A stretch of DNA of 62,089 nucleotides from Pedosphaera sp. Its GTDB lineage: Bacteria; Verrucomicrobiota; Verrucomicrobiia; Limisphaerales; SIBH01. The notes under the pieces were generated by a model. The model did no database searches. It had not been told where the DNA came from and was given only the letters and a program-made list of their open reading frames with translations. The stretch is taken from NCBI GenBank assembly GCA_031414955.1, contig JANOQV010000045.1, positions 1-62,089 on the forward strand, written 5' to 3'. The position numbers were made by a program, and so were the translations under genes. Positions 1,143 through 37,657 of this stretch are shown one piece after another. How positions within the stretch are numbered: the stretch's first letter is position 1; the number at the start of each line of letters is the position of its first letter.

Positions 1143-4100
1143 TCAAGTCTTGCCTTCAACAGGGTGAAAGAGGGCGAGCAATTTTTCCATCGCGACAAGT
1201 TGTTCAGGCGTGATCTTTTTCTTCGCGAGCATCCGCCTCCGCATGTCGGCGGTGAGGCCAAGCCTCCCGGCAAGATGTGCGACATCGCGCTCGGCGTTGT
1301 AATAGCCAAGGGTGAACTTCGGTTCGTTCTCCTTGGCTTTGACCTCGGAAAGCGCCTCGGCCAGGGCAATCACGACGGTATTGGCAAAGGCAATCTTGAA
1401 AATCGGGCCTTGGAGCGGCGGCGAGAACCCCCAGATCGAGAAGACAAAGACGCGGGCCAACGCCGCGTTGTCCGACTCGTCCGTCCACAGGTAAAGCGCG
1501 GTGGTTGTCGCGTCCCGCAACGGCAGGTCTGTGACGCAGAGCAGATAGTCCACGCTCAGTTTGGCACGAATTTCTTCCATCCTCGGCGCGACTCGCTCGG
1601 CGTTCAGGTAGGCGACGTTCGAACTGCTCGAAGCGTCCGGGGTCCAGAGGCTGCGCGGCGCGGTCAGGTGTTCGAGGCGGAACTCAAAATGATCCTGCGC
1701 GGCGTTCATCGTCGCCAGCGTGGCGTCGAGGTTCTCCCGATAAGGCAAAGCATTTGCCACGTCCCACACCGCGATTGTGATCGGACGGCTCGGCAAAGGG
1801 TCGCGCTTGTCTTTCGTTCCTGTGGGTGCCGCGCGGTGCGGCCAAGACTGTGAACGACTGGCGACCGGGGTGGAAAGGGCGCTGGTCACCAGCGGAGATG
1901 CCAGCGCCTGGCCGATTTTCTGCGGAGTGCATAACCGCGCATTCGGGTTGCGGGCGAAGAGCACAGGCACGCCCCAGTCCATCGGCTCGACGCCGCTGTA
2001 ACGAATGGCGATCCGCGATTCCCGCATGGCATCGCCCAGCCGCAGGCCAGAGGCGAGGCAGGCGTAGAAATGCAGCGAAAAGAGCGAGGCCGCGCGATCC
2101 AGCACGCTGTATTGATTGGCTACCACGGCCGGGATGCCGTCACGCACGAGCGACATGGCGACACCGCGGTTGTATTCCGCGCCCGCGCCGCGGCCGGTTT
2201 CACAGGCGTTGAGGAAGACGATTCGGATGCTCCGACTGCGCAAAATGTCGAGGAGTTGGGAAGCGGAAAGGCTCTGTTGCCGCGCTCCTTCATCTTCAAA
2301 CAACACGTAACCAGTGTTGGTCTTGCGGTCGAATTCGCCATGTCCGATGAAGTGGATGATGTCGAACTCGTCGCCGCGTGCCAGTTCACGCAGCGTTTCA
2401 TGGAGCAGTTTCGGGGTGGCACGGGGGATCACTTTCACTTCAACGAGCCCGGCGCTCGTCAGCGGCTTGAACGCCTCGGCGATATAGCGGCGTTCCTCCT
2501 CAATGGAGAGCGGCACACTGCCGGCCGGCTGCGCCGAGATCACCAGGATCCGGAGCAGCGCCTTGGTGTCGATACGATCGGCTGGCATTGGCGACAAGAC
2601 GTTGCGCACGAACCGAACGTCAGCCGTGGCCAGAAAGGTTTCACTGGCGAAATCAAATGCAAACTCCCACGGAAAATCGGCAACCCAGGGAATCATCGAA
2701 GTGAAGATGATGTTCAGGCGCCGCTTGTCGTGTCGAAAGCGTGCCGCGTCGTAAAGCCTCCGCACCTCACTTGGGAAAAGTGTCTCGAAAAGTACTCCTC
2801 CAAAAACTTGCAGGAATGCGTCCGTCGGGGTGCTGACCACTGTTTTGTCAGGCAGGGTGAAAGTCTGCTCGCGGCCATTGGCGTAGGCGACCATGAAGCG
2901 GTGCATATCGCTGATCTGTTGCCAGCGTTGCCCCGCATTGTCCTTGCTGCCCCGGACGTAAAACGGAACGGCCACGCGCGCGCTGCCATAAGTCGCGAGC
3001 AGCAGAGGAACCGAGTCGTCGGACTCCATCTCCGCGTGTTCCGTTTGTGCAATGACGGTGAGGAAAAGATCGTCCTCGTTGTTCCAACCATCCATGCCGA
3101 GACTGGCCACAGGAGGCTCCGTGCCCCGGGTTGCGGCAGGAACGGGTGTTTTCTCCGTTGCGGCGGCGACCGCAGGCGCCCAGGGTGGGGGGGGCGGCAA
3201 CGAGCGGCTGGCGCGTCGCGTCGCTAGGGGGTGTTGCGTTTCCAGCAGTGTAAGTCCGAGCGGCTCGCCGCGCAGGGCCTTGAGGATGAAGCCGGCGGTT
3301 TCTGCGCGGTGGAAGAAACTGACGTGGTTGACCGCGGCGGGTTCATCCGTGGCCAGATTGCCACCCAAGCCGAAACAGCCAATCCGCTCGCGCGGCACCC
3401 AGGAAGCCGGGCTGGCGTCCGTCTGCCAGCCGCCTTCAGTCGGAACAACCAGATCATTTGCCCCGCCAAAGAAGGCGTCCACCCCCATGTCCGCGAGACG
3501 TGACCACCAGTGCTGGGGCGGGTGAAAATTGGAGGTCAGGGCGTAATAGTGCATGCCCGGAGGAACGCCCGGCGCGGCCTGCAAATCGGCGATGATGTCG
3601 CCCTGCCCATCCATGGCTGCTAGTCCCGGGGCATTGCCGACAACTTTGTCCGCAAACCAGATGAGCGCATTTGACAACCAGTCGGCAGCGGTGAGGAAGG
3701 GGTGATCCGGGAGCAGTTCGAGGAGATTCGCAAACCACGCCAGCTTATCCTCCCAATGCTGCGGACTGGCCAGCGGCGTGCCCGCATTCGGGCTGGCGAC
3801 GAGCACCACTCGTCCGATTTTCAATCGGGCCGCGTCACCGCCCAGGCTCGCCGCCGCCTCAGTCAGAGTGCGCAGCACCAGACCGCCGCGTGAGTGGGTG
3901 ATGACATCAAAATGAAACCTTCCCGGCGGCAGCGCGGCCAGCAGCGTGCGCACATTTTCCTCCGGCGTCGCGCTGAACGTGAAATGATCGAAGGCAAAGA
4001 TGTTTTCGCCATAGATCGAACGGAGGCCGGCAAAAAACGGCTCCGATGCGAGATCACGGAAGGCGCTGCCCGCATTTGAAAAAGTGCCGTGGAGGAAGAG

Positions 4101-4778
4101 CAAACCACGCTCGTTCTCGGGAAATGCCGGCAACCCTGCCGCGAGGTCGCCTGCGGCCAGAGTCGCTTGCGTCAATTGCAGCCAGCCTTGCCGCCGCCCT
4201 TTCCAAAGCTGCTCTTCGAGCTGGCGCGCGAGCCAGGGCACGGCGAGTTGCGCGAGCGGATCGACCACGAGGTCGGCGGCTTTCTTCACCAGTTTGACGA
4301 GGATCGCGCTGACTTTGCCCCATACGCCCCGCCGTGCGGTTTGCGGATCGCCCGCGAGCACCGGCACGGTGAATTCCACTTCCATCGTCGCTGTGGCACC
4401 GCGCCTTGCCGCACGCTGTAACGTCGCCGTTGGCCGGCGGAAGGAAATGGCACCCGAGGCCTGGCGCACAACAAGCAAGACCGATGCATCAGCCGGAACT
4501 GTGGCGCGCAGAGGCAATTCCACATCGCCTGATCCGCGCCGCGGCGCAGACGGCGTCGCCTCAACGACATCCAGCACTTCAAAATCACCCTTTGTCATCG
4601 CCTCGGGCAGGACGGCTCCGGGCGCTTCACCTGTCGCGACGCGACGACGCTCGGCTGCCTTTGGAATGGCTTCCTGCACCGACAATCGCGCAAGCACCCA
4701 GCCAGGTGAGCTCTGCAACTGCGAACCTGGAGTGGCGGCAGTTTTGGAACGACGGCTTGCGGGCGGTCTTTTTTTCAT
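1143..4778 (-). CDS. Alpha/beta-hydrolase (lipase-like) + CHAT (caspase-like protease) multidomain protein
   Basis: FLHGTFS oxyanion motif and ITHSRGG nucleophile elbow. CHAT dyad motifs IIHFIGHG and LNACETG. Uncharacterised C-terminal domain of about 200 aa. Confidence 0.85.
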   Translation of the reverse strand: MKKRPPASRRSKTAATPGSQLQSSPGWVLARLSVQEAIPKAAERRRVATGEAPGAVLPEAMTKGDFEVLDVVEATPSAPRRGSGDVELPLRATVPADASVLLVVRQASGAISFRRPTATLQRAARRGATATMEVEFTVPVLAGDPQTARRGVWGKVSAILVKLVKKAADLVVDPLAQLAVPWLARQLEEQLWKGRRQGWLQLTQATLAAGDLAAGLPAFPENERGLLFLHGTFSNAGSAFRDLASEPFFAGLRSIYGENIFAFDHFTFSATPEENVRTLLAALPPGRFHFDVITHSRGGLVLRTLTEAAASLGGDAARLKIGRVVLVASPNAGTPLASPQHWEDKLAWFANLLELLPDHPFLTAADWLSNALIWFADKVVGNAPGLAAMDGQGDIIADLQAAPGVPPGMHYYALTSNFHPPQHWWSRLADMGVDAFFGGANDLVVPTEGGWQTDASPASWVPRERIGCFGLGGNLATDEPAAVNHVSFFHRAETAGFILKALRGEPLGLTLLETQHPLATRRASRSLPPPPPWAPAVAAATEKTPVPAATRGTEPPVASLGMDGWNNEDDLFLTVIAQTEHAEMESDDSVPLLLATYGSARVAVPFYVRGSKDNAGQRWQQISDMHRFMVAYANGREQTFTLPDKTVVSTPTDAFLQVFGGVLFETLFPSEVRRLYDAARFRHDKRRLNIIFTSMIPWVADFPWEFAFDFASETFLATADVRFVRNVLSPMPADRIDTKALLRILVISAQPAGSVPLSIEEERRYIAEAFKPLTSAGLVEVKVIPRATPKLLHETLRELARGDEFDIIHFIGHGEFDRKTNTGYVLFEDEGARQQSLSASQLLDILRSRSIRIVFLNACETGRGAGAEYNRGVAMSLVRDGIPAVVANQYSVLDRAASLFSLHFYACLASGLRLGDAMRESRIAIRYSGVEPMDWGVPVLFARNPNARLCTPQKIGQALASPLVTSALSTPVASRSQSWPHRAAPTGTKDKRDPLPSRPITIAVWDVANALPYRENLDATLATMNAAQDHFEFRLEHLTAPRSLWTPDASSSSNVAYLNAERVAPRMEEIRAKLSVDYLLCVTDLPLRDATTTALYLWTDESDNAALARVFVFSIWGFSPPLQGPIFKIAFANTVVIALAEALSEVKAKENEPKFTLGYYNAERDVAHLAGRLGLTADMRRRMLAKKKITPEQLVAMEKLLALFHPVEGKT

Positions 4779-4888
4779 AGATGGAATCTTGGAAGGGGTC
4801 GCTTTTCGAGAGGGTCAAATGGCTTTCTCTGTTCAACCGAAGTTGGCTGCGCCCTGATGCTGAGTTTTCCAACGAGTTGTGCGGTCAT
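4775..4888 (-). other. 37-aa bridging ORF between the DUF1592 stop and the CHAT start
   Basis: ATG 4888 overlaps the DUF1592 TGA (ATGA) and its TGA overlaps the CHAT ATG (ATGA). 38 codons, no internal stop: MTAQLVGKLSIRAQPTSVEQRKPFDPLEKRPLPRFHL. Confidence 0.4.
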
Positions 4889-22314: not shown

Positions 22315-24087
22315 CTACGATATTCTCAGCCACACCGTCTTCAAATACGCCGGCTCGGCGCGGCTGATGGGGAAGTCGGGCGGCTGCGGGACATAATGCC
22401 GCTGGAGAATTTTGCGTCCTGAATTCGTCACGGATTCCTCAATCATCACCAGGAATCTTTCCGGTTCCAGTCTCGCCGCGTTCGTTGACGCGAAAAGCAC
22501 TCCTCCGGGCTTCAGCGCCGGCAAGGCGGCGGCGACCAATTGGCCGTAATCTTTTTCGGCCTGCCAGGTGCCGCTTTCCTTCGACCGTGAGAATGTAGGC
22601 GGGTCAAGAATGATGGCGTCGAACGCCCGGCCCTTCTTGGCCAGCCGCCGCAGCCAATCGAAGGCGTCGCCATAAATGAAATTATGCTGCGCCGGGTCGA
22701 GTTCGTTCAGGGCGAAGTTGCGCTGGCCCCACTGCAGATATTTCTTCGACAAGTCGAGGCTGGTGACGCGCGCCCCGGCCTTCGCCGCCGCCACGGAAAA
22801 GCCGCAGGTGTAGGCGAAGGTGTTGAGGACTTCGGGTTGGAGCGCCGAGCATTGCTCGGCCTGGTGGCTAGGCGTGCCAGATCGAGCCGAGCGATGCTCG
22901 GCGCTCCATTCCCCAAAATCCGCCGCGACGTGGTTCATGAGCAGCCGTCGCCGGTTGTCGCGCTGATCGAGGAACAGCCCCACCGAGTAGCCCTCGCTGA
23001 AACTCATCTCAAAGTTCAATCCGTTCTCACGGATGTTAAACCGCTCCGGCGCGGCTTCGCCGAGGAGAAGTCGCGGCGATGCGTCGGCCCGGTCGGCCCC
23101 GCGCAGGTTACGGCTGAGTGTCTTGTGGTAAACGCCGCGTGCCTGGTGCGCTCGTGCCAGCGCTGCGCAAAGTTCACGCTCCGCCGCGTTTAGTTCACCC
23201 GCGCTTTGCCCGAGCAGGAAGTCGCCGAGTTTCTCGACCTGCAATCCCGGCCAGCCATCGCTCGCTCCGTGGATGGCGCGCCACGCATCGGTCAGCGCCG
23301 GATCGATGATGGCGGTGCGCAACGCATCTGGAGCGTGGATCGCTGAGTCCGCGCGAACCTGGCCGTCCGCGCTCCAGTCACACGGCGCGGTGAAGGTCAC
23401 CGCCTCCCCGCTCGCCGGATGTTTCAACGTCAACTCCGCCGCGTGCAGAAACACTCGCGCCGCCGGCGTGCCGCCATAGAGCAAATCGCCGAGAATTGGG
23501 AACCCATGCTCCGCCGCGTGAACGCGAATCTGGTGCGTGCGCCCCGTGACGGGTTCGGCCTCGACGAGCGTATGCCCCCCCGCGGAGGTCAGCACGCGAA
23601 AGCGCGTTTCAGCGCGTTCCCCGGCCGCCACCAACGGGCGGCTCACGTAATTCTCACCCGCCCGCACCAGCGTAGACACCGCCGTGAGTGACGTCTTTGC
23701 CACCGAGCGATCGGTCAGGAGGAGATACTTCTTGTGGGCGTCCCGCGCGGTGAACTGCTCCGTGAGTGACTTGTTGGCCAGCGTCGTTTTGCCGAAGACC
23801 AGCACGCCGCTCGTCTCCTTGTCGAGGCGGTGGATGATGGCGAGTTTCGCCCAGCGCGGTTCGCGGTGCCGCAGCCAGTCATAGACGCCTTCGCCGGCAA
23901 ATGGCGCGGGCGCGTGCGTGTTCCAGCCCGCGGGTTTGTTCACCACGAGCAGATGTTCGTCTTCCCAGAGAATCAACGCCCGGAGGGTAATGAAGAGTCG
24001 TGCCTGTTGCGAATCAATCGGAACGCCGAGCATTGCTCGGCTTGAAGTTTGGTCGTCAGCCGGGCCGAGCGATGCTCGGCGTTCCAC
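22315..24087 (-). CDS. Fusion of RluA-family pseudouridine synthase and RlmI/RlmK-like SAM methyltransferase
   Basis: HRLDKETSG and TGRTHQIRVH (RluA); GLFLDQRDNR, NTFAYTCGFS and ILDPPTF (RlmI/K). Start uncertain: GTG 24087 directly after the nuoN stop, or TTG 23976. Confidence 0.88.
   Translation of the reverse strand: MERRASLGPADDQTSSRAMLGVPIDSQQARLFITLRALILWEDEHLLVVNKPAGWNTHAPAPFAGEGVYDWLRHREPRWAKLAIIHRLDKETSGVLVFGKTTLANKSLTEQFTARDAHKKYLLLTDRSVAKTSLTAVSTLVRAGENYVSRPLVAAGERAETRFRVLTSAGGHTLVEAEPVTGRTHQIRVHAAEHGFPILGDLLYGGTPAARVFLHAAELTLKHPASGEAVTFTAPCDWSADGQVRADSAIHAPDALRTAIIDPALTDAWRAIHGASDGWPGLQVEKLGDFLLGQSAGELNAAERELCAALARAHQARGVYHKTLSRNLRGADRADASPRLLLGEAAPERFNIRENGLNFEMSFSEGYSVGLFLDQRDNRRRLLMNHVAADFGEWSAEHRSARSGTPSHQAEQCSALQPEVLNTFAYTCGFSVAAAKAGARVTSLDLSKKYLQWGQRNFALNELDPAQHNFIYGDAFDWLRRLAKKGRAFDAIILDPPTFSRSKESGTWQAEKDYGQLVAAALPALKPGGVLFASTNAARLEPERFLVMIEESVTNSGRKILQRHYVPQPPDFPISRAEPAYLKTVWLRIS
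22838..22908. repeat. REP-like palindrome, family A, copy 1 (inside CDS)
   Basis: TGGAGCGCCGAGCATTGCTCGGC...GCCGAGCGATGCTCGGCGCTCCA. Confidence 0.85.
24020..24085. repeat. REP-like palindrome, family A, copy 2
   Basis: GGAACGCCGAGCATTGCTCGGC...GCCGAGCGATGCTCGGCGTTCC. Confidence 0.85.
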
Positions 24088-25572
24088 TCAAAGCCCGGCG
24101 ACAGCCTGCGCGAGCGCGAACTTTTGCAGCAGCCAGTCGGGCGCGCAGCCCAGCAGCACGACCGCCGCCGCGAGAACGAGAATGGAAACCTGCACGGGCA
24201 AACTCACCTTCACCACTGCATTCGTCCCCTCTGTCCCATCGGCCACATAAATCTGCTTCAAGATTTGAAGGTAGTAGTAGAGCGAGACGGCGCTGGTCGC
24301 GATGGCGATGATGACCAGCCAGAGCAAGCCCAGCGAGCCGCCCGAACGTGCGGCGGCAGTGAAGACGTAGAACTTGCCGAAGAAGCCGGCCAGTGGCGGG
24401 ATGCCGGCGAGCGAGAGCACAAAAACCAACATGCAGAACGAGAGCACCGGCGATCGACGGCTGAGCCCGGCGAAGTCGCGCAGGCTTTCACCTCCGGTAG
24501 CATTTTCCACCACGCCCACTACGGCGAATGCGCCGAGTGCCGTCACGGAGTAGGTCACCACGTAGTAGAGCAGTGAACCGAAACCCTGTTGCGTGTTCGC
24601 GACCACGGCGAGCAGCGCGTAGCCGGCGTGGGCGATGGCGGAATAGGCCAGCAACCGCTTGACGCTGCTTTGGGCGATGGCGGCGATGTTACCCAGCACC
24701 ATCGAGATGATGGCGAGCATGGCGAGCAGCGATACCCAGCCCGGCGCACCGGCGCGCCACACGGCGCTGCCTTCGTTGCCGGCGAGGCCAATCATCATGA
24801 GGCGCGCGAGGACGAAGAAGCTGGCGACCTTTGATCCCGAGGCGATGAACGCAGCGACCGGCGTGGGCGCGCCCTGATAGGCGTCCGGTGCCCAAAGATG
24901 GAACGGCGCGGCGGCCACCTTGAAAGCAAACCCGATGGCTGTCATCACCAACGCCACGTAGAAGACCGGCTCCGGACTGCCGCCAAGTTTCGCCGCGATT
25001 CCGCCCAGCGTGATTTCGCCGCTGATTCCATAAAGCAGGCTCAAACCAAACAGCATGAACGCCGCCGCCATGCTGCCGAACAGGAAATATTTCAGCGCCG
25101 CCTCGGATGATTTCACGTCGCCCTTGTTGAAGGCCGTAAGCGCGTAGAGCGGCAGGCTGGTGAGTTCGAGCGCGACGAAGATGAGCAGCAGGTTGTCCGA
25201 ACTGACCAGCAGCATCATGCCCACCGTCGCGAGCAACAGCAGGGCGAAGTATTCGCCGATGTGCCTAGTGAACTTCGAGTCGATGGAGATCAGCGCCGTG
25301 ATAATGGTGAGCAGCAGGATGACCTGCTTGATGAAGGCGGCCGTGCGGCCGTAGCTCAACATGCCGTCGAGCAGGCGCACCGGCTGGGTTACACCTGTGG
25401 AGAGTGCGAAGGCCCCGAGACAGCCGAAGGTCAGCACGCCGACCGCCGCCATCCACCGCGTGCGGGTCGAAGTGCCGCGTGGCGCAAGCAAATCCACGGC
25501 GAGAACGAGCAGCGCCGTGATGACGACGACCGATTCGGCCTGAAGCGCGCGGAAAATCTCGGCGTAGTTCAT
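24088..25572 (-). CDS. nuoN: NADH-quinone oxidoreductase subunit N
   Basis: SSEAALKYF, FKVAAAPFHLWAPDAYQGAP, KRLLAYSAIAHAGY, SLAGIPPLAGFFGKF. Confidence 0.95.
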   Translation of the reverse strand: MNYAEIFRALQAESVVVITALLVLAVDLLAPRGTSTRTRWMAAVGVLTFGCLGAFALSTGVTQPVRLLDGMLSYGRTAAFIKQVILLLTIITALISIDSKFTRHIGEYFALLLLATVGMMLLVSSDNLLLIFVALELTSLPLYALTAFNKGDVKSSEAALKYFLFGSMAAAFMLFGLSLLYGISGEITLGGIAAKLGGSPEPVFYVALVMTAIGFAFKVAAAPFHLWAPDAYQGAPTPVAAFIASGSKVASFFVLARLMMIGLAGNEGSAVWRAGAPGWVSLLAMLAIISMVLGNIAAIAQSSVKRLLAYSAIAHAGYALLAVVANTQQGFGSLLYYVVTYSVTALGAFAVVGVVENATGGESLRDFAGLSRRSPVLSFCMLVFVLSLAGIPPLAGFFGKFYVFTAAARSGGSLGLLWLVIIAIATSAVSLYYYLQILKQIYVADGTEGTNAVVKVSLPVQVSILVLAAAVVLLGCAPDWLLQKFALAQAVAGL

Positions 25573-27047
25573 TGCCCCGCTCCTTTCAGGGGCGCCATGA
25601 GCGGCGTGTCAAAGCTCGGGATGATCAAATCAAGCAGCAGGCGCGGGTAGATGCCAATCAGCAGAGTGATGGCCAGCAGCATCACGGCACCGATGCGTTC
25701 AGGCAGCGTGATGGCCGCGAGCGTCTCGCCGTGATGAACGCCGCCCGCGGTTTCGCGCGCACCAAAGAACGCCTTCACCAGCACCCGCAGCGTGTAGGCC
25801 ACACCAATGACAATTCCCACTCCCGCCAGAGCGGCGTAGAGCGGGAAGGTTTTCCAAGCGCCGAGCAACACCTGAAGTTCCGCGACAAAGCCGCTGAAGC
25901 CGGGCAATCCCATCGAAGCCACACTCGCCAGCACGAAGGTCACCGCCGCGAACGGTAGGGCACGGGCCAGGCCCATGCCTTCCAGCGCGGTCAGTTCGCG
26001 CGTGTGCGCCCGGTCATAGACCATGCGTCCGACCACGGCGAAGAGCAGCCCGGCGATGATGCCGTGCGAGAACATTTGCAGCACCGCGCCGGACAGGCCC
26101 GTGACCGAGAGTGTCATCAGGCCGAGCAGCACGAAGCCCATGTGACTCACACTCGAGTAGCCGATGACGAACTTGAAATCCTTCTGCACCAGCGCCACGC
26201 CCGCTCCATAGACTATGCCGATGATGGCGAGAGCCGCCATCGTCTCGCGCCATGCGTCGAGGCCGTCGGGGAACAACGTCATCGCCACGCGCAGTGCGCC
26301 GTACGCGCCGAGTTTCATCACCACACCGGCGAGCAGCATCGATGCGGCGGTCGGCGCGGCCACGTGACCAGTCGGCGCCCAAGTGTGGAACGGCCACAGG
26401 CCCGCAAGGATGGCGAAGCCGATGAACACGAGCGGAAAAGCCCAGAGTTGGAAGGCGTGCGGCAGCGGCTGCGTCGCGAGCGCGAGCAAGTTGAAAGTCG
26501 GCACGGTCGCGATGGCGTAGGTGGCGATCAGGCCGATGAGCACCATCGCGCTGCCCACGAACGAGTAGAGCGCCAGCTTCATCGCGCCGTATTCCTTGTT
26601 GGTCGAGCCCCAGATGGCGATCAGAAAATACTTCGGGATGATGGCGATCTCGTAGAACACGAAGAGCAGGAACAGATCGAAGCTGAGAAACACGCCATAC
26701 ACGCCGCCGATGAGCGTGAGGTAGAGGGCGAAGAACTGGTTCACGCGTTTCTCGATGTTCCACGAGAAGAGCACGCCCGCCACGGCCGCGATGCCTGTCA
26801 GCAATACGAGCGTGAGGCTGATGCCATCTGCCGCGAGGAAGTAGCGCGCGTTGATGGCCGAGATCCACGGGATGTCCAAGATGGTCTGAAAAGCGCCGCG
26901 ATTCGTCCGCTCCAGCACACCCATCAACCCGACGCCCAGTCCCAGCAGCGACGCGAGCAGCGCCACGACGCGGGCCAGTGGCGCGCGTGGAACCAGCGCC
27001 ACGACCGCGGCCCCGAGGAAAGAGATGTAGATGGTCCAGGCGAGCAT
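25569..27047 (-). CDS. nuoM: NADH-quinone oxidoreductase subunit M (second copy)
   Basis: DGISL, FFVFYE-like motif FVFYEI, PFHTWAPTGHVAAP, LAGVVMKLGAYG, GLPGFSGFVAE. Confidence 0.9.
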   Translation of the reverse strand: MLAWTIYISFLGAAVVALVPRAPLARVVALLASLLGLGVGLMGVLERTNRGAFQTILDIPWISAINARYFLAADGISLTLVLLTGIAAVAGVLFSWNIEKRVNQFFALYLTLIGGVYGVFLSFDLFLLFVFYEIAIIPKYFLIAIWGSTNKEYGAMKLALYSFVGSAMVLIGLIATYAIATVPTFNLLALATQPLPHAFQLWAFPLVFIGFAILAGLWPFHTWAPTGHVAAPTAASMLLAGVVMKLGAYGALRVAMTLFPDGLDAWRETMAALAIIGIVYGAGVALVQKDFKFVIGYSSVSHMGFVLLGLMTLSVTGLSGAVLQMFSHGIIAGLLFAVVGRMVYDRAHTRELTALEGMGLARALPFAAVTFVLASVASMGLPGFSGFVAELQVLLGAWKTFPLYAALAGVGIVIGVAYTLRVLVKAFFGARETAGGVHHGETLAAITLPERIGAVMLLAITLLIGIYPRLLLDLIIPSFDTPLMAPLKGAGQ

Positions 27048-27048
27048 A

Positions 27049-28584
27049 TCAGAAGGTCAGCAGCATCTGCTTCACGGTCGGGTTCAGGACGGCGAGCACG
27101 AGGTGCGGAAAAATGCCCAGCACGAACATCGCGGCGATCATGGGCGCGACGGTCAGGCGCTCGGCGGTCGTCAGGTCCACCCAGGAGTGATTCGGCTTCA
27201 ATGGGCCGGTGAAGACGCGCTGGATGGTCGTAAGCAGGAAGACGGCGGTGGCGAGCAGGCCGAGCGTGGCCAGCGCCGTGGCCCACGCGCTGAGGGCGAA
27301 GGCGCCCTTGAAGATCAGGAACTCGCCCACGAAACCATTGAGGCCCGGCAGGCCGAGCGAGGAGAAGAGCGCGATGCCCATCAACCCGGCGAAGACCGGC
27401 GCGGCTTTGCGCAGTCCGCCGAAGTCGTCGAGTCCGCGCGCGCCGCCGTTGCGTTGTTCGAGGAAGCCGACGAAGCAGAACAGCGCGCTGGCGGTCAGGC
27501 CGTGGTTGAACATTTGCAGGATGACGCCGTTGAGCGCGGCGGCGCGGTCGTTGAACAAGCCGGCGTCGGAAGTCTTCAGCACCGCGAACAGCCCGAGCAT
27601 GCAGTAGCCCAAGTGGTTGATGGATGAGTAGGCGACGACGCGCTTGAGGTCCTTCTGTGCGAACGCGGCCCAGGCAGAGAACACGATGGTCGCGACAGCG
27701 AGCCAGAGCAGCGGGGTGAGCATGACGCGCAGCGGTTCGGGGAAAATCGGGAGCAGAATGCGGATGAATCCATACACCCCCATCTTGGACATCACGCCGG
27801 TCAGGACCATCGAGGTCGAGATTGGCGCCTCGGAGTAGGTGAGCGGCAGCCAGGTGTGGAAGGGAACGAGCGGGACTTTGACCGCGAAGCCGAGCAGAAC
27901 CCCGCCAGCGAGCAGGAGCATGAGTGTGTTCTGCGAGAGTCCGCTGACGGCGAGCTTCGTTCCGACGGCTGTGGCGAGTTCACCGCTGCGGGCCAGCTTG
28001 GCCAGTTCCATGAAGTCGAACGTGTTGGTGGCGAGGAACAACCCGACGAAGGCCAGCAACATCGCGATGCTGCCGACCATGGTGTAGATGAAGAACTGCA
28101 TCGCCGCCGCGCCGCGCTTCTCTCCACCCCAGAGTTTGATCAGGAAGAACGCGGGCACGAGGCTCAGTTCCCAGAAGATAAACCAGTGGAAAAAGTTCAA
28201 GGCCGTGAACGTGCCGAACAGTCCGGCTTGCAGGAACAGCATCAGCGCGAAGTAGAGCCGGTTCTGTTGAGCCGTCGGCGTGGCGATGATGGCGAAGGGC
28301 ACGACGATGGCTGAGAGTGCAATCATCAGGAGTCCGAGGCCATCGATGCCGAGGAAGTAATCCACGCCGAGCGAGGGAATCCAGGCGCGCGGTCCCTCGA
28401 CGAATTGGAGCGTGCCAGAGCTGCCATCGAAGTTGCGCCAGAGATAGGCGACAAGCAGGAGCGGCAGGAAGCTGAGGCCGATGGCGAGTTTGCGTGAGAG
28501 GCGGGCATCGGCGCGGCTGAGCAGCAGGAGCAAACCACCCGCAACGGGAAGCAAAGTCAGGATGGTGAGGAAGGCGGTGTTCAT
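27049..28584 (-). CDS. nuoM: NADH-quinone oxidoreductase subunit M (first copy)
   Basis: GIDGL, FIFWE, VKVPLVPFHTWLP, KMGVYG, GLPGLNGFVGEF. Start at ATG 28584. Confidence 0.92.
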   Translation of the reverse strand: MNTAFLTILTLLPVAGGLLLLLSRADARLSRKLAIGLSFLPLLLVAYLWRNFDGSSGTLQFVEGPRAWIPSLGVDYFLGIDGLGLLMIALSAIVVPFAIIATPTAQQNRLYFALMLFLQAGLFGTFTALNFFHWFIFWELSLVPAFFLIKLWGGEKRGAAAMQFFIYTMVGSIAMLLAFVGLFLATNTFDFMELAKLARSGELATAVGTKLAVSGLSQNTLMLLLAGGVLLGFAVKVPLVPFHTWLPLTYSEAPISTSMVLTGVMSKMGVYGFIRILLPIFPEPLRVMLTPLLWLAVATIVFSAWAAFAQKDLKRVVAYSSINHLGYCMLGLFAVLKTSDAGLFNDRAAALNGVILQMFNHGLTASALFCFVGFLEQRNGGARGLDDFGGLRKAAPVFAGLMGIALFSSLGLPGLNGFVGEFLIFKGAFALSAWATALATLGLLATAVFLLTTIQRVFTGPLKPNHSWVDLTTAERLTVAPMIAAMFVLGIFPHLVLAVLNPTVKQMLLTF

Positions 28585-28591
28585 GATTCCC

Positions 28592-28812
28592 CAATCCCAA
28601 AGGGATTGCATCGATTAGCCCAGGGTTGCGAGGCACGAGCTACCCTGGGAATCGAATTCATAAATGCCGCCAACCCTGAAAGGGTTGAATCCAATTGGCT
28701 GGAGAACGCCACGCGCTTCAACCCCTTCAGGGTTGAAAATGTTTTGCGGACCACACCCAGGGTAGCTCGTGCCTCGCAACCTTGGGCTGAGTGATGGAAC
28801 CCCGTTGGGGTT
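28592..28812. repeat. Long palindromic MITE/REP-like element
   Basis: 33-bp inverted repeat AGCCCAGGGTTGCGAGGCACGAGCTACCCTGGG (28617-28649) versus 28756-28788, plus four short CCC-n-GGG hairpins. Confidence 0.85.
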
Positions 28813-28820
28813 ACCAAAAT

Positions 28821-28888
28821 GGAGCGCCGAGCATCGCTCGGCTCGGACGGAATCGAAGCACTCAAAGTCGAGCAATGCTCGGCGCTCC
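28821..28888. repeat. REP-like palindrome, family A, copy 3
   Basis: GGAGCGCCGAGCATCGCTCG...CGAGCAATGCTCGGCGCTCC. Confidence 0.8.
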
Positions 28889-28918
28889 GAACTGCGGGCG
28901 ATGAATATCTTGTTGTTC

Positions 28919-31021
<2,103 letters not shown>

Positions 31022-31022
31022 C

Positions 31023-31061
31023 TCATCCTTTCAACCCGTCCATGTTCTGTAACCGTGTCGT
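31023..31061 (-). pseudogene. Degenerate duplicate of the nuoK 3' end immediately upstream of nuoL
   Basis: Encodes TTRLQNMDGLKG* versus the nuoK end TTQLQDVDKLKG* (31836-31874). Confidence 0.65.
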
Positions 31062-31107
31062 GCCATTGCGCCTGAGGGGAACGCTGCTGAGGGCTCGGTT
31101 TGAAACC

Positions 31108-31135
31108 TTGTCCCAATCCGCGCCCGTGGTAAGCT
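31108..31135 (+). promoter_or_regulatory. Possible sigma70 promoter of the TA cassette
   Basis: TTGTCC, 16 bp, TAAGCT with a TGn extension, about 10 bp before ATG 31145. Confidence 0.35.
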
Positions 31136-31144
31136 CCGCAACGT

Positions 31145-31390
31145 ATGTCATACCTCACCATGGAAGCCGCCATTGACCACGGGCGCATCACGGTTGCCGA
31201 ACCGGACAAGCTGCCGGTGACGGGCAAGGCGCTGCTCACCGTGCTGGATTCGCCGGAGCGCAAGCCGGACTGGGCGAAGGTCATGAGTCTGCTCGGCACC
31301 ATGGAGCACAAGGTGGATGGGCTGGCCGTCGAGCGCGAAGCGCGGGCCGGGTGGGATGAGCGCGAACGCAAGCAGTGGGGCAACCGCTGA
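31145..31390 (+). CDS. Putative antitoxin (VapB-like)
   Basis: 81 aa, TMEAAIDHGRI N-terminal strand and DGLAVEREARAGWD tail; stop overlaps the PIN start (TGATG). Confidence 0.7.
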   Translation: MSYLTMEAAIDHGRITVAEPDKLPVTGKALLTVLDSPERKPDWAKVMSLLGTMEHKVDGLAVEREARAGWDERERKQWGNR

Positions 31391-31776
31391 TGCGCTGGCT
31401 GCTCGACACGAACGTCTGGATTGACGCACACGCGGGCCGGCCTGACGCCGGTCGGGTTTTCGCCAAGGCCCAAGCGACACAGGGAGCGTGGCTGGGCTTT
31501 TCTTCCATCACCAAGATTGAGGCGCTGGGCTTCGCCGGCCTGAGCCCGCAGGACGACAAGGCATTGCGCGAGTTGCTGGCACAGTTCGAGGAACTCCCGG
31601 TTCTTCCCGCCGTGGTGCATGAAGCCATCCGGCTGCGCAAACTTCACAAAATGAAAACGCCGGACGCAATCATTGCCGCCACCGCATTGCTTCAGCAGGC
31701 GGAAGTGGTCACGCGAAATGTCGGCGACTTCAAGAAGGTGGCGGGACTGGCCGTGCTCGACACGCAAAGCTTCTGA
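31390..31776 (+). CDS. vapC: PIN-domain toxin VapC
   Basis: WLLDTNVWID, ITKIE, KTPDAIIAATA, VTRNVGDF. Confidence 0.9.
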   Translation: MRWLLDTNVWIDAHAGRPDAGRVFAKAQATQGAWLGFSSITKIEALGFAGLSPQDDKALRELLAQFEELPVLPAVVHEAIRLRKLHKMKTPDAIIAATALLQQAEVVTRNVGDFKKVAGLAVLDTQSF

Positions 31777-31835
31777 CTTCGCCGCCGTTGAATCGTGGCG
31801 GGAACTGATTCCTTCAAAGCTGGTCAGCAAGGCGT

Positions 31836-32147
31836 TCATCCCTTCAACTTATCCACGTCCTGCAACTGCGTCGTCCGGTAGTGCCGGTAGATGGCGATGA
31901 TGATGGCGAGGCCGACTGCGGCCTCCGCCGCCGCGATGCCGATGGAGAAAATCACGAACATGAGGCCGGTCAGTTCGTTCGCGTTCGCGCTGTAGCGCCA
32001 GAAGGCGATGAAATTCAGGTTGGCGGCGTTGAGCATCAGCTCGATGCCGATGAGGACGAGGATGGCGTTGCGACGCGTCAAGGCCCCGGCCAACCCGATG
32101 CTGAACAGCAAGGCGGCAAAGATGAGGTAGTAGTGAAGCGGAGTCAT
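31836..32147 (-). CDS. nuoK: NADH-quinone oxidoreductase subunit K
   Basis: RRNAILVLIGIELMLNAANLNF, AAAEAAVGLAI. Confidence 0.96.
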   Translation of the reverse strand: MTPLHYYLIFAALLFSIGLAGALTRRNAILVLIGIELMLNAANLNFIAFWRYSANANELTGLMFVIFSIGIAAAEAAVGLAIIIAIYRHYRTTQLQDVDKLKG

Positions 32148-32812
32148 GGTGTGGAACTCGTTTCAACAGGCCGACTGCTTCCAGATTCACCAGCGCCGCG
32201 GTAGGGCGCGCTTTCCTCAGCGCGCCGTGGTAAGGCGTCTGGATGTTCAATCCCCGTTTCCGATTCGTGGCGCGGCGCGGTGGGGACACCGCGCCCTACC
32301 TTCTTCTCCGGTTCATCGCGCATGGCGATGACGACCGCGCCGAGCAATGCAGCGGTGAGGACCAGCGCGATGGCTTCAAGTGGGATGACGTATTGGGTCA
32401 TCAACTTCTCGCCGATGCGGCGCACCTCCGCATTCGGCTTCGTGGTCATGGCCGGTCCGCGTTGCAAGCTCGGGCTTTTCAAGAGCGGCACGGCAATGCT
32501 CGCGCAGACGACGATGGCCACGAGCAATCCCGCCAGCCACGAACGCGAGCCACGCGCAAGTGATACCTCGGTATTGCGCGTAAGCAGGATGGTGAAGACG
32601 ATCAGAATCGCCACCGCGCCGACATAGACCAGGATTTGTGCGAAGCCGACGAACTCAGCGCTGAGGTGCAGATATGCCGCCGCCAGTCCACCGAACGTGA
32701 TGGCCAGGCAGAGTCCACAATGCACGAGGTTCCGCAGGCTCATGGCGCAGGCTGCGCTCACTAGGGTGACTGCCGCGATGATGATGAAGGCGATGGGAAA
32801 GTCACTCGGCAT
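32144..32812 (-). CDS. nuoJ: NADH-quinone oxidoreductase subunit J (with REP-encoded tail)
   Basis: NLVHCGL, AEFVGFAQILVYVGAVAIL, YVIPLE. Start at ATG 32812. Confidence 0.92.
   Translation of the reverse strand: MPSDFPIAFIIIAAVTLVSAACAMSLRNLVHCGLCLAITFGGLAAAYLHLSAEFVGFAQILVYVGAVAILIVFTILLTRNTEVSLARGSRSWLAGLLVAIVVCASIAVPLLKSPSLQRGPAMTTKPNAEVRRIGEKLMTQYVIPLEAIALVLTAALLGAVVIAMRDEPEKKVGRGVPTAPRHESETGIEHPDALPRRAEESAPYRGAGESGSSRPVETSSTP
32200..32300. repeat. GTAG-type REP doublet inside the nuoJ 3' end
   Basis: GGTAGGGCGCG-ctttcctcag-CGCGCCG ... CGGCGCGGTGGGGACACCGCGCCCTACC. Confidence 0.8.
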
Positions 32813-34019
32813 AGCGATAAGTGCGGGTCGGAAACTGGTTGGTGTGCAGCACGCGGCCAAGCGCGACATACGCGCCGCCAATGATGGCCGCGCAGACCAC
32901 CCAGCGGACAGCAAGTGCGCCCGTGAAACCCCATGCCCCGCTAAAATGCCAGAGCGCGGCCACGAGCAGATTGATGAGCGTCAACGGGACGAGAAATTTC
33001 CACGCGAGCTTCATCAGTTGATCCATGCGAAGACGTGGCACGGTGGCGCGCACCCAGATAAAGAGGGCGATGAGCGTGGCAAACTTCAGGAAGAACCAGA
33101 GCCACGATGGGACGAAATTCAGGAACGGCAGCGGCGCGGTCCATCCGCCGAGGAAAAGCGTCACGGCGAAACCAGTGATGGCGAACAGGCCCATGTATTC
33201 GCCGAGGAAAAACAGCGCGTACTTGAAGCCGGAGTATTCGGTGAGGTAGCCAGCGATGATCTCGGACTCGGCCTCGGGAAGGTCGAACGGCGCGCGGTTC
33301 GTCTCGGCGCACGCGGCGATCATGAAGAAGACGAACGCCGCGAAACCCCAGGGCGTGAGCACATGCCAGTGCGGAATGAAACCCAACGAATAGCTCGACT
33401 GCGCCTGGACGATTTTATCCAGCGAAAGCGAGCCGACCATCATCACGACCGCGACGGTCGAGAGGACGAGCGGGATTTCGTAGCTGATCATTTGGGCGAT
33501 GCCGCGCATGGCTCCCACCAGCGCATACTTGTTGCGGCTCGACCAGCCAGCCATGAACACGGCGAGTTCGGAACCGGCACCGAGCGCGAAGAAGAAAAGC
33601 AGGCCGGCATCGAGATCGATGGCGGACATGTTGCGGCCGAACGGGATGACGGCAAACGTAAGCCAGACCGGGATCGCGAGGGCGAGCGGCGCGAGGTAGT
33701 GGACGACCTTGTCCGCAGCGAACGGGACGATGTCTTCCTTGGTCAGCATCTTGATGCCGTCGGCCATGAATTGGCCAAAGCCGGCGAGCCGGATTTTGGT
33801 GAGCGGGATGCCGACGCGGTTCGGGCCGTAACGATTTTGCACGCGGCCGAGGGCTTTGCGCTCGACCACCGTCGTGATTCCAAACGCGAGGGCGAACAGG
33901 CCGATGATGGGAACAATCGAGAGAAGAATCGAAACGAACGGCCGCAGCGCGTCGGGCCAGAACGACCAGGCGACGATCCAGTGCTTGGCGATGACGAAAA
34001 TCTGGTCGGCGGTTTCCAT
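32802..34019 (-). CDS. nuoH: NADH-quinone oxidoreductase subunit H
   Basis: ERKALGRVQNRYGPNRVG, ADGIKMLTKED, QMISYE, ETNRAPFDLPEAESE, EYSG. Confidence 0.96.
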   Translation of the reverse strand: METADQIFVIAKHWIVAWSFWPDALRPFVSILLSIVPIIGLFALAFGITTVVERKALGRVQNRYGPNRVGIPLTKIRLAGFGQFMADGIKMLTKEDIVPFAADKVVHYLAPLALAIPVWLTFAVIPFGRNMSAIDLDAGLLFFFALGAGSELAVFMAGWSSRNKYALVGAMRGIAQMISYEIPLVLSTVAVVMMVGSLSLDKIVQAQSSYSLGFIPHWHVLTPWGFAAFVFFMIAACAETNRAPFDLPEAESEIIAGYLTEYSGFKYALFFLGEYMGLFAITGFAVTLFLGGWTAPLPFLNFVPSWLWFFLKFATLIALFIWVRATVPRLRMDQLMKLAWKFLVPLTLINLLVAALWHFSGAWGFTGALAVRWVVCAAIIGGAYVALGRVLHTNQFPTRTYRYAE

Positions 34020-34024
34020 TCAGG

Positions 34025-34678
34025 TCACATGGGAAATGGTTTGGTCGCGTCGCCGCTGGCGGGCGGTATCTTGGCATCCGGAGCAGCAGGCGCGGCGGCT
34101 TTCGCAACTTCGGCCGCGGCCTTGGCCGCAGCAGCGGCTTTGGCCTTTTCCTCTGCTTTGCGTTTCTCCTCGGCGAGTCGGCCATCGATCTCGGCGGCGT
34201 CCGTGGGATGCAGGTGGTGGAAGTAAGTGTTCGGCTTGGCGAGGTCCGTCTTCCTGAGCAGCAGTTTGTCGAAACGGTCGGTGGTGCTCAGTTCGAAGAC
34301 TTGATCCATCTTGATGGCCTCGAACGGGCAGACCTCGACGCAAATCTGGCAGCTCATGCAGACCGAGACATCGATGTCGAACGTGGCCGGATAGAGCTGC
34401 GGCTTGCCGGCGTAGTCGGGCTTCTTGTCCTTGCTCTTGACGATGTAGATGCACTGCGGCGGGCATTCCTTCTCGCAAATCTGGCAGGCCACGCAGCGCA
34501 GCCCGGCTTGCGAGTCGTCGCCATCGAACACGAGGAACGGAAAGTTCCGGCCATTCTCCTTCGGCGGAACTTTTTCCTCGGGATACTGGACGGTGGTGAG
34601 CCGCGTCTCGTCGTGGTAGCTGCCGACGAAGTTCCTGCCGGTTTCGATGAGACCTTTGATGAGTCCGGTGCCGAGCAT
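34025..34678 (-). CDS. nuoI: NADH-quinone oxidoreductase subunit I
   Basis: TVQYPEE and two CxxCxxCxxxCP motifs (CVACQICEKECP, CMSCQICVEVCP). Start at ATG 34678. Confidence 0.93.
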   Translation of the reverse strand: MLGTGLIKGLIETGRNFVGSYHDETRLTTVQYPEEKVPPKENGRNFPFLVFDGDDSQAGLRCVACQICEKECPPQCIYIVKSKDKKPDYAGKPQLYPATFDIDVSVCMSCQICVEVCPFEAIKMDQVFELSTTDRFDKLLLRKTDLAKPNTYFHHLHPTDAAEIDGRLAEEKRKAEEKAKAAAAAKAAAEVAKAAAPAAPDAKIPPASGDATKPFPM

Positions 34679-34684
34679 GTCAGT

Positions 34685-34850
34685 GGTTGCAGGTTGCAGG
34701 TTGAAAGTTGCTGGTTGGAAAAAGCACCAAGCACCAAGCTCCAAGCACCAGAGAAACATCAAACACCAAGCTCCAATGACGCCGGGCGACCACGTTGGGA
34801 CTTGAAGTTTGGAACTTCTCTGGAGCTTGGAGCTTGGAGCTTGGTGTTTT
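34685..34850. repeat. Heptamer tandem repeats arranged as an inverted pair
   Basis: 5x GGTTGCA-like units (34685-34719), then GCACCAA/GCTCCAA units, then complementary TTGGAGC units ending at the nuoD stop. Confidence 0.85.
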
Positions 34851-36022
34851 CATCGGTCCACCTCCCCCAGCACGATGTCCACGCTGCCGAGAATGATGAC
34901 CACGTCCGCGACGTTGTGGCCGAGGCACATATCTTCGAGGATGGTCAGGTTGATGAGACTGGGTGGGCGCACGCGGTAGCGGAACGGATTCGCGCTGCCG
35001 TCACTGATGAGATAAAAGCCCAGTTCACCCTTCGGTCCTTCAATGCGTCCATAGGCTTCGCCCGGCTTGGGCTTGAAGCTGCGCAGCTTCGCTTTCGGAT
35101 CGATGATGGGGCCGGCGGGAATCTGCGCCAGCGCTGGCTCGAGAATCTTGAGCGACTCGCGCATCTCCAGCACGCGAATCATGTAGCGGTCGAAGACGTC
35201 GCCGTGCTCGCCGACGGGGACGCGGAACGGGAAGCGATCGTAGATGCCATATTTGTCCACCTTGCGGATGTCGTAGCCGACGCCCGCGGCGCGGAGCATC
35301 GGGCCGGTGATGCTGGCGTTGACGGCCAGTTCCTTCGGCAAGACGCCGACGCCTTGGCTGCGCGCGAGGAGGATTTCGTTGCCGGTGAGCAGTGCCTCGA
35401 ACTCGTCGAGGAACTTCGGGAAATTCGCGACGACCTTTTTCGCCTGTTCGATCCATCCGCTCGGCAACTCACAGCGACAGCCACCAAAGCGCATGTAGTT
35501 GCACATCATGCGCGAGCCGCTGAGCGACTCAAAGAGATCGAGGATGTTCTCGCGTTCCCGGAACGCATACATCAGCGGCGTGCCAAGCGCGCCCATGTCC
35601 TGCATGAGGAAGCCGACGAGGCACGCGTGATTGAGCAGGCGCGTCAGCTCAGCGGTGATGACTCGGATGTATTCGGCGCGCTCGGGCACCTGCAGGCCGG
35701 CGAGCTTTTCAACGCTGAGCGCGTAAGCCCAGTTGTTGGTCATCGAGCAGAGGTAATCGAGCCGGTCGGTGTACGGCATTGAGCCGAGGTAGCTCGTGTT
35801 CTCGGCGATCTTCTCGTGATTGCGATGGAGGTAGCCGAAGACGGGCTTGAGCTTCACCACCGTCTCGCCATCGAGCACCACGTCCATGCGGAACACGCCA
35901 TGCGTGGAAGGGTGATGTGGTCCCATCGAGACTTCGAGCAATTCGCCGCCAAGGTCGTCGCCGTTGGGCGCGGTCTTGGGGCGGACCTCGTAGTTGCGGG
36001 ATGGAGTTTCAAGTGAAGCCAT
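34850..36022 (-). CDS. nuoD: NADH-quinone oxidoreductase subunit D
   Basis: [43 protein letters not shown]. Start at ATG 36022. Confidence 0.96.
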
Positions 36023-36657
36023 CAAGACTTCACCTCCAGCGCGGCGTGCTGCTTCGCCTTTTCCAGCACCTCGTCGTGCGGCGTTGGTTCGTATTCGTAA
36101 TCGTCCGGCTCGACGTAGTCTTTGCGCATCGGATGATCTTTGAAGCCATCCCACATGAGCAGGCGGCGCAAATCGGGATGACCGTCGAAGACGATGCCGT
36201 AGAGGTCGAAAATCTCACGTTCCTGGAATTCCGCGCCGCGCCAGACCGGCGTGAGCGACGGCAGGTGGTTTTGATCAGAGCGATTGCCGGTGCGCATCCG
36301 GATGATCAGCGGGCCGTGCTTCAACTCCATGGAGTAGAGGTGATAGACCGCTTCGAGAAAGCCGGGGATTGGCATGTCGGTCGTCTCTTCGACTTCCTTC
36401 TCCACGCCGTCCCCGAGCTTCATCATCTTCGTTTTGATCTTCTCGACGCGGTCAGGCCAATCAACGCCCGTGACATTCGAGGCGTAATCGAAGCGCAATC
36501 CCGTCCCCGTGCGGAGAAAGGTCGCGACCGCCGCGCCATGCGGCGAGTTGAGCAGCAGCGAAGACTGCGCAGGCACGCTGGGGTTCGCGACAATCTCGAC
36601 TTTCGCGCCGGGCACGGCTTGCTCGATCTGCGACTTGATTTGTTCGAGTGAAAGCAT
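36022..36657 (-). CDS. nuoC: NADH-quinone oxidoreductase subunit C
   Basis: [49 protein letters not shown]. Confidence 0.95.
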
Positions 36658-36661
36658 CTGG

Positions 36662-37282
36662 TCAGCAGCCGCCGCGATTCACTGTGGGTGGTTTCCAGAG
36701 GTCGGGATTCGACGCCGGCTCAAGGTCATGCTCGCCAAAGGCCGGAATGGGAAACTCGCTCGGTTGCGACGCGTCGAGATGACGCGGGCGATTGGCACCC
36801 GTGAGAGCCTGTTCCTCGATCTTCTTCTGCAATGTCATCAGCGCATGCAACAGCGCTTCGGGTCGCGGCGGGCAGCCGGGAATGTGGACATCCACCGGAA
36901 TGTAACGGTCGATGCCCTTGAGCACGTTGTAGCCCTGCTTGAACGGCCCGCCAGAGATGGCGCACGCGCCCATGGCGATGACGTACTTCGGCTCAGGCAT
37001 CTGGTTGTAGAGCCGCACGACTTGCGGAGCCATCTTCTTGGTCACAGTGCCGGCGACGATCATCAGGTCGGCCTGTCGTGGCGAAGGACGAAATACCTCT
37101 GCGCCGAAACGCGCGATGTCGAACCGTGCCATCGAGGCCGCGATCATCTCGATGGCGCAACACGCGAGGCCGAATTGCAGTGGCCAGACGGAGTTCTTGC
37201 GGCCCCAGTTGTAGAGTTCGTTGAGCGACGTGGTGAACACGCCGGCCTTGCTTAATTCGCTTCGTAGTCCTTCGTCCACCAC
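36662..37282 (-). CDS. nuoB: NADH-quinone oxidoreductase subunit B
   Basis: [31 protein letters not shown]. Confidence 0.97.
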
Positions 37283-37285
37283 AGG

Positions 37286-37657
37286 TTATTTCCAATTCAA
37301 GACACCTTTGCGCCAGGCCCACACGAGGCCTTCGACCAGCAGCAACAGGAAAATCATAATCGCCACAAACGCGCCGACCGGCAGCGTCTTGAACGCCACG
37401 GCGAAGGGCAGCAGAAAAATCGTCTCGATGTCGAAGACGAGGAAGACGATGCCGTAAAGGTAGTAATCCGATTTGAACTGCACCCAGTCCTTGGCGTCGG
37501 ACTCGAGACCGCATTCATAGACGGCGTTCTTGCTCGGGCCTGATTTGCGCGGCGAATACTGCCTGGCCCAGAGAGCGGCCAGAGCCAGCGGAGTGAGCGC
37601 GAAAACAGCCGCCGCCGCCAGGAACACGGCGAGTAACATGTATGGGCTGTCTTGCAC
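37286..37657 (-). CDS. nuoA: NADH-quinone oxidoreductase subunit A
   Basis: YECG, FLVFDIETIFL, WRKGVLNW. Confidence 0.95.
   Translation of the reverse strand: MQDSPYMLLAVFLAAAAVFALTPLALAALWARQYSPRKSGPSKNAVYECGLESDAKDWVQFKSDYYLYGIVFLVFDIETIFLLPFAVAFKTLPVGAFVAIMIFLLLLVEGLVWAWRKGVLNWK

Follow-up and report, generated by a model that had tools for sequence, protein, structure and literature searches.

The principle that an inserted sequence can carry ribosomes across itself by means of an open reading frame (ORF) is already published. MIRUs (mycobacterial interspersed repetitive units) insert at start codons of operon genes and hold an ORF that overlaps both neighbours at a -4 spacing, an arrangement proposed to spare downstream expression (PMC12548453 and PMC3184786, in their available portions). 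In integrons, the short ORFs of attC sites and the attI1 ORF-11 run through a stem-loop and ease the barrier it poses by termination-reinitiation, with the peptide sequence mattering little (PMC8876359, available portion). Here we describe bridging ORFs in the nuo operon of a Pedosphaera sp. (Verrucomicrobiota) genome of 6.5 Mb and 62% GC, analysed from a contig (JANOQV010000045.1; C45 in our numbering) whose 62,089 nt are referred to as the window. This complex I-like operon, in which the names nuoA-D were assigned by reading translations, carries two nuoM genes and no nuoEFG, and presumably corresponds to what has been called a 2M complex. Its three intergenic inserts, at D-I (171 nt), K-L (814 nt) and L-M (334 nt), are all bridged by an ORF that runs from the upstream stop to the downstream start, and the remaining nuo junctions in the window measure at most 5 nt. 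Comparison with related genomes makes it fairly probable, in our assessment, that mobile insertions at stop-on-start junctions survive when such an in-phase relay ORF hands ribosomes to the downstream gene.

The window relays work like a MIRU without being one. Their ORF ends overlap or abut both neighbours, but the inserts belong to several families and have the lengths given above, rather than being a 40-100 bp unit of one Mycobacterium repeat family. Unrelated elements comply, including 60-400 nt hairpins, stacked repeats and the 814-nt gene cassette; their lengths vary, their phase is tuned case by case, and they are confined to junctions that ancestrally overlapped. That junk frames hand ribosomes on across inserts, as proposed for MIRUs, is probable. 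Unlike the integron ORFs, the relays involve no integron or attC site and their hosts are housekeeping operons. Noncontiguous operons, in which genes of opposite orientation lie inside an operon, are matched here by 11 nuo loci; the available part of the source describes the antisense stretch as untranslated, names this an intriguing problem and invokes uncoupled transcription in Gram-positives (PMC11034616), whereas the antisense stretch described here is a conserved stop-free frame that abuts a gene on either side, in a bacterium that has Rho. GTAG/CGTC repetitive extragenic palindromes (REPs) and RAYT-associated repeats are intragenic in Opitutus terrae (PMC3733652, available portion), and in both cases Verrucomicrobia palindromes lie near or inside ORFs and are translated in frame (here the NuoJ tail, nuoL and rluA), but the main text of that source does not use the word 'coupling' and dismisses short REP ORFs as spurious. 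The proposed mechanism is that of translational coupling, through termination-reinitiation or RNA unfolding, and of synthetic bicistronic designs (PMC12548453 and PMC10666635, in part), used here twice in series over parasitic DNA. No description of multi-family or antisense relays was found in the open-access library that was searched, and the new part is a 277-codon frame antisense to a toxin-antitoxin (TA) pair.

Evidence for the relay comes foremost from the nuo operons of relatives. We counted as a relay any ORF that starts -14 to +12 nt from the upstream stop and ends -12 to +20 nt from the downstream start, excluding ORFs in the frame of the downstream gene; a strict definition, with approximate flanks, was applied as well. 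The main null consists of a 1- or 2-nt deletion immediately within the spacer, which breaks only the phase and preserves both spacer ends, composition and hairpin; shuffles and reverse complements served as further nulls, and nuo starts were placed by homology, independently of the gene caller. Among 39 orthologous nuo loci from 61 genomes searched, 41 of the 60 spacers of 60-400 nt were bridged, compared with 16.1 expected from shuffling, 10.8 from shuffling with indels and 20 from reverse complements. Removal of six spacers that we judged to hold real small genes left 39/54 bridged against 10.8 after phase shifting; this set without the window gave 37/52. A second set of 80 loci, in which one exact duplicate was skipped and eight ambiguous titles were kept apart, yielded 31/38 bridged Verrucomicrobiota spacers (8.7 expected) and 6/11 in the ambiguous group (1.7 expected). 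With a single junction taken from each genome, the count was 29.8/42 against 9.0. Under the strict definition the counts were 18/54 against 1.2 in the first set and 18/38 against 2.5 in the second Verrucomicrobiota set. The same operon in Acidobacteriota, many of whose spacers appear homologous, showed a weak excess by the loose definition (27/92 against 15.0) and none by the strict one (2/92 against 1.0). Several H-J relays start at an ATG at -11, the position of the nuoJ start in the window.

The excess extends beyond nuo, and it is the inserted repeats that carry it. Across the genome, bridging ORFs were present in 224 of 1295 co-directional spacers measuring 50-400 nt, with 159.3 expected. 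This excess lies in the repeats: 95/283 repeat spacers were bridged against 29.0 (61/283 against 8.8 by the strict definition), and 52/89 against 11.2 where the repeat fills the spacer; the non-repeat spacers match the null (121/861 against 119.3). The main heptamer family accounted for 38/58 (6.8 expected), and other repeat families for 45/192 (20.7 expected). Repeat and nuo spacers exceeded the shuffle, reverse-complement and phase-shift nulls 2-7 fold, and among repeat spacers 99 of 130 co-directional ones had a relay frame open over 90 nt, compared with 24 of 50 convergent ones (p 6e-4).

Bridging is selective as to junction. In 40 atp and 40 ribosomal-protein operon loci, from which junctions with an unreliable downstream start or a hidden uncalled gene were left out, spacers were not enriched (11/39 against 9.7 and 10/63 against 7.3), although many of them hold the same kinds of repeat. 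The idea that relay peptides are a general operon rule in this genome therefore fails: non-repeat, atp and ribosomal-protein spacers all stay at their nulls. Junctions of the atp and ribosomal-protein operons almost never overlapped, and insert-free relatives often show an overlap at most nuo junctions (J-K in 20/30, L-M in 19/26). The nuo junctions A-B and B-C, which are rarely overlapped, were bridged in 6/16 cases against 3.2 expected, and the other nuo junctions in 64/76 against 16.3. Bridging, on these comparisons, appears to mark junctions whose genes ancestrally overlapped.

The phase of the inserts bears on whether the ORFs couple genes or only cover the mRNA. Where a start-stop tetramer stands at both spacer ends, just one length class modulo 3 couples, and this class (1 mod 3) comprised 25 of 30 nuo spacers (p 2e-8) and 22 of 31 heptamer spacers (families 0/1); the corresponding counts were 14/38 for other repeat families and 43/135 for non-repeat spacers. 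Sixteen strict heptamer relays had 16 different loop lengths and mixed arm lengths, and their arm, loop and pad lengths span all residues modulo 3 while the total is fixed, so that a fixed element design does not explain the phase. Its retention despite variable lengths also favours ribosome hand-over above mere coverage against Rho. Anti-polarity, in which the ORFs only keep the mRNA ribosome-covered against Rho or hairpin RNases and downstream genes initiate alone, is the alternative that survives best, though we regard it as unlikely. Rho is present in the genome, and without a relay the 814 nt of the K-L insert would go untranslated, the problem named for noncontiguous operons (PMC11034616, available part); in many heptamer relays the arms at the end lie 9-16 nt ahead of the start, so that both effects can coexist. 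Coverage, however, needs any open frame, yet phase is selected, and the atp and ribosomal-protein inserts stand at equal Rho risk and are nevertheless unbridged. Of the proposal in the initial annotation that inserts persist only if ribosomes are relayed across them, by reinitiation or anti-polarity, the bridging beyond GC-matched expectation and the selection on phase are upheld, but anti-polarity alone leaves the phase unexplained. Two rho-like genes were seen, on C142 and C242, of which one exceeds the TIGR00767 cut-off and the other falls short of it.

Less probable still is that the relays are a by-product of insertion, whereby elements duplicate an ATGA target and bring a built-in open frame of the right length, by MIRU-like design or as what is left of a cassette gene, selection playing no part afterwards. 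The heptamer arms are nearly stop-free and often open with their own ATG, full cassettes have genes welded to both neighbours, a duplicated nuoK 3' end provides the closing stop in three loci (L038, L039, L046), and the absence of the heptamer family from convergent spacers (0/81 loci) suggests targeting. Such an origin is difficult to reconcile with the free variation of component lengths at a fixed total, with end tetramers that are identical in 9 of the 16 strict relays and differ in 7 (GTGA..ATGA), with compliance by many unrelated families (9 similar pairs only among the 54 nuo spacers), and with the enrichment of the other repeat families. Chance, whether through 62% GC and a null rate of 10-25%, near-automatic starts at NTGA or a start-calling artefact, is a very remote prospect: non-repeat spacers do equal the null, and the single junctions nuoN-rluA and 4888-4775 remain compatible with it, but the relay class exceeds all nulls and the homology-based nuo starts do not depend on the caller, so that bridging in nuo and repeat-filled spacers is selected and no GC artefact, and chance is refuted for that class. 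That the relay peptides are functional small proteins is hardly credible, for although heptamer-family peptides are alike at both ends, the arms are read in all phases, the shifted frame has the same coding score as the relay frame (-0.27 per codon, compared with +0.24 for genes), so that the peptides look non-coding, and no family in Pfam or NCBIfam matches them, which also disposes of the relays as known proteins.

GGAG is no more frequent upstream of starts (4.2%) than in the control (4.3%), a lack of Shine-Dalgarno enrichment in a genome whose assembly yielded no 16S gene; the anti-Shine-Dalgarno sequence is intact in three relatives. Bridged heptamer hairpins lower the predicted accessibility before the start, with an unpaired probability at -30 to -10 of 0.27 against 0.43. 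The last TTGG(A/G) unit of the heptamer right arm often ends 9-16 nt before the start codon, and this arm may hold a candidate Shine-Dalgarno-like word, accessible only once the hairpin has unwound. Coupling needs very short distances and collapses at about 20 nt spacing (PMC10666635, available part), and can act by unfolding or scanning (PMC12548453, available part).

In the mechanism that we propose, mobile cassettes that combine hairpin arms with four-helix-bundle, GxxExxY, RAYT or TA genes, and remnants of them that have lost the genes, would enter stop-on-start junctions, where, to judge from the comparison of relatives, the old start codon remains fused to the upstream stop. The hairpin would part the genes by 60-800 nt and is predicted to bury the downstream initiation region, in a genome that shows no Shine-Dalgarno enrichment. 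Ribosomes that end the upstream gene could then begin anew at the relic start, unwinding the insert as they translate it, and stop on the downstream start or a few bases from it, there reinitiating or clearing the way. The statistics show that selection targets the absence of stops and the phase, not the peptide. Independently initiating genes such as atp and ribosomal-protein genes would need no relay, and an antisense TA cassette would fall under the same constraint, its codons restricted to those that keep the reverse frame open.

The K-L junction appears to be such a case. Its insert is a two-gene TA-like cassette on the opposite strand, absent from the initial annotation, whose PIN gene matches PF01850 above cut-off and NCBIfam VapC models below their cut-offs; the 81-aa putative antitoxin matches nothing in Pfam or NCBIfam and in homologues its neighbour is again a PIN gene or another toxin-like gene. 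A scan of 30900-32000 for the consensus of a sigma-70 promoter or of a terminator found none. The relay frame has 0 stops compared with 9 and 7 in the other two frames, synonymous-codon resampling puts the chance of bridging at 0.04-0.16, and the 277-codon peptide has no match in Pfam or NCBIfam. Antitoxin homologues occur in 33 of 401 genomes of the order, and 30 loci were compared. In all 13 close homologues the relay frame is stop-free across the antitoxin (0 stops against 12.8 expected from amino-acid pairs, with 42 against 38.3 in the other offset frame); among the 17 distant homologues it is open in 2 (36 stops against 27.8). Eleven of the 13 close homologues lie in nuo, at two different junctions: the nuoK ATGA is the start of nine relays, that of L243 begins 5 nt downstream of the nuoM1 stop, and a contig end truncates L246. 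Ten of these 11 end on or near the next start, the exception being L238. Cassette content varies, with or without a middle gene and with different toxins, DNA identity is 68-85% over aligned pieces of the six compared, and the bridging chance per cassette is 0.01-0.17. In L038, L039 and L046 the nuoK 3' duplicates that close the relay are in frame, and in L239 the relay goes on, as read by eye, via ORFs of 11 and 27 codons to nuoL. This 277-codon antisense frame suggests how a noncontiguous operon can stay translated. The odds seem to us about even that the ribosome relay is a selective filter that shapes other genes, and that the TA cassette owes its persistence to a reverse strand kept open as a translated relay of 195-349 codons, which was adjusted anew at a second junction and linked in series to more relays and to duplicates of gene ends.

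Several observations weigh against these interpretations. Genome-wide starts came from our own gene caller, which misplaced those of nuoD, nuoA and nuoM, and kinship among the genomes and among the TA cassettes makes the p-values too favourable. More than half of the repeat-filled spacers (151/283) show neither a relay nor an in-frame extension, and this set does not tell operon-internal from promoter-bearing spacers. The nuoM1-M2 junction never overlapped (0/25) and is usually within 20 nt, yet its 60-400 nt spacers in Verrucomicrobiota were bridged in 3/3 cases, and tight spacing of gene neighbours raised the relay rate only modestly (26/63 against 67/215). A Shine-Dalgarno-like word lowered the relay rate in no set, so that its absence is context and not a shown cause; the missing word was accordingly rejected as a predictor at junction level. 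The antisense TA cassettes share ancestry, and the non-nuo copies L240 and L242 are also open over the antitoxin, though with high chances of openness (0.52 and 0.91). Only 2 of 151 antisense sandwiches in the genome are bridged (0 expected), and antisense relays as a common feature were rejected.

If correct, the relay turns a proposal about a single mycobacterial repeat into a rule that is measured, specific to junctions and accompanied by negative controls, in which natural insertions act as a genome-wide test of coupling-dependent genes (nuo, but not atp or ribosomal-protein genes) and relay presence maps the junctions that depend on coupling. Relays would explain a class of spurious 'hypothetical proteins', and long antisense ORFs would gain a concrete non-protein role as a class that functions by being translated, not through a product. 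The antisense relay would likewise give a testable answer to how transcription and translation traverse the antisense genes of noncontiguous operons, and would explain the survival of such operons in Rho-dependent bacteria.

The features of the window are collected in the table below. All junction ORFs listed in the initial annotation were found where it had placed them. The D-I ORF begins on the nuoD ATGA and stops 1 nt short of nuoI, the junction being bounded by ATGA..ATGC, not by identical tetranucleotides; its hairpin (-88.5 kcal/mol, z -6.1) has 81 other genomic matches, dinucleotide shuffles give a bridging chance of 0.05, and its peptide matches nothing in Pfam or NCBIfam. Arms of this heptamer family also flank a four-helix-bundle (PF05635) gene on contig C241, the only one of four PF05635 genes with TCCAAGC-type arms, the other three having different repeat arms. 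The NuoJ tail is a translated palindrome, as claimed, that ends in ATGA on nuoK; the Pfam NuoJ domain stops at residue 168 of 228, the palindrome has 38 other genomic matches, and repeats in 3' gene tails of this kind number 2 cases only, both overlapped and too few to generalise. The K-L ORF runs from the nuoK ATGA to 16 nt into nuoL, and the degenerate nuoK copy ends a 42-codon ORF (31151-31023) 1 nt before the nuoL ATG. The L-M ORF runs from ATGA to ATGA across stacked palindromes (-200.5 kcal/mol, z -11.3; 72 other genomic matches) with a bridging chance of 0.095 in dinucleotide shuffles, and the second palindrome, judged by eye, resembles a repeat around a Y1 transposase (PF01797) gene on C53.

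Two further junctions named in the initial annotation carry their ORFs without standing individually above chance. The GTG right after the nuoN TGA does read in frame into the rluA-methyltransferase fusion that follows nuoN on the minus strand, but of 13 homologous rluA loci, taken with flanks of 1.5 kb, none has nuoN next to rluA, so this is not an ancestral nuo junction. Homologues of the fusion align from residue 28-38 in most genomes; the fusion itself (24000-23970) lacks the ATG/GTG found at residue 31-38 in most homologues, which leaves it as starts the GTG that follows nuoN, an ATG within the repeat and a TTG. The 37-codon ORF at 4888-4775 likewise exists from ATGA to ATGA, but its spacer is unique DNA with 0 other genomic matches, a class bridged at the null rate, which makes it a weak case.

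Table. Features of the window discussed in the text, with positions on the forward strand numbering.
Feature	Position	Strand	Remarks
Host operon nuoA B C D I H J K L M M N	24088..37657	-	complex I-like
nuoD-nuoI relay ORF, 57 codons	34680..34853	-	crosses 7-nt-unit (TCCAAGC-type) hairpin
NuoJ C-terminal tail, GTAG-type REP-like palindrome	32144..32300	-	ATGA overlap with nuoK retained
K-L relay ORF, 277 codons	31006..31839	-	antisense to toxin-antitoxin cassette
PIN-domain (VapC-like) gene, 128 aa	31390..31776	+	antisense to nuo operon; PF01850 E 5e-15
Putative antitoxin, 81 aa	31145..31390	+	overlaps toxin start
Degenerate second copy of nuoK 3' end	31023..31087	-	43/71 columns identical
Palindromic repeat in frame within nuoL	29545..29635	-	19 other genomic matches
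L-M relay ORF, 113 codons	28581..28922	-	two stacked palindromes, nuoL to first nuoM
REP-like palindrome after nuoN	24010..24087	-	read from GTG into rluA-methyltransferase fusion
37-codon ORF	4775..4888	-	DUF1592 gene ATGA to CHAT-domain gene ATGA; weak case

Further observations concern the surroundings of these features. A palindrome is also read in frame inside the rluA fusion at 22835-22915; neither this nor the in-frame nuoL palindrome figured in the initial annotation, and 76 repeat loci sit mid-gene in called genes genome-wide. The CHAT/DUF7379 gene (1143-4778) separates DUF1592 from its usual partner DUF1552, a paralogous pair of which is ATGA-overlapped on C109 and another, on C230, likewise has some 2.6 kb between its members. 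On C301, at about 30.5-31.4 kb, a more divergent second nuoD (45% identity) marks another complex I cluster, and heptamer relays are present on that contig as well. Small inserted genes have a hot spot in the nuo operon (L031-L069; junctions C-D, D-I, K-L and M1-M2); by reading of their translations they include TA pairs and GxxExxY-like, transposase-like and HflK/C-like genes, and 29 nuo junctions exceed 400 nt. In L237 (G131:C27) the antisense relay is followed by a 35-aa nuoL 5' fragment, a small gene, a 54-aa nuoL 5' fragment, a further ORF and the true nuoL, the first links being joined by ATGA overlaps, which reads by eye as serial insertions that duplicated the nuoL start region. Among the atp operons, about 1.9 kb separates atpD from atpC on C173, and the atpA-atpG distance exceeds 400 nt in 9 of 35 genomes. 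Finally, an ABC-transporter operon on C159 (about 72.7-74.7 kb; pst-like by reading) shows three successive junctions with a heptamer hairpin and a relay.

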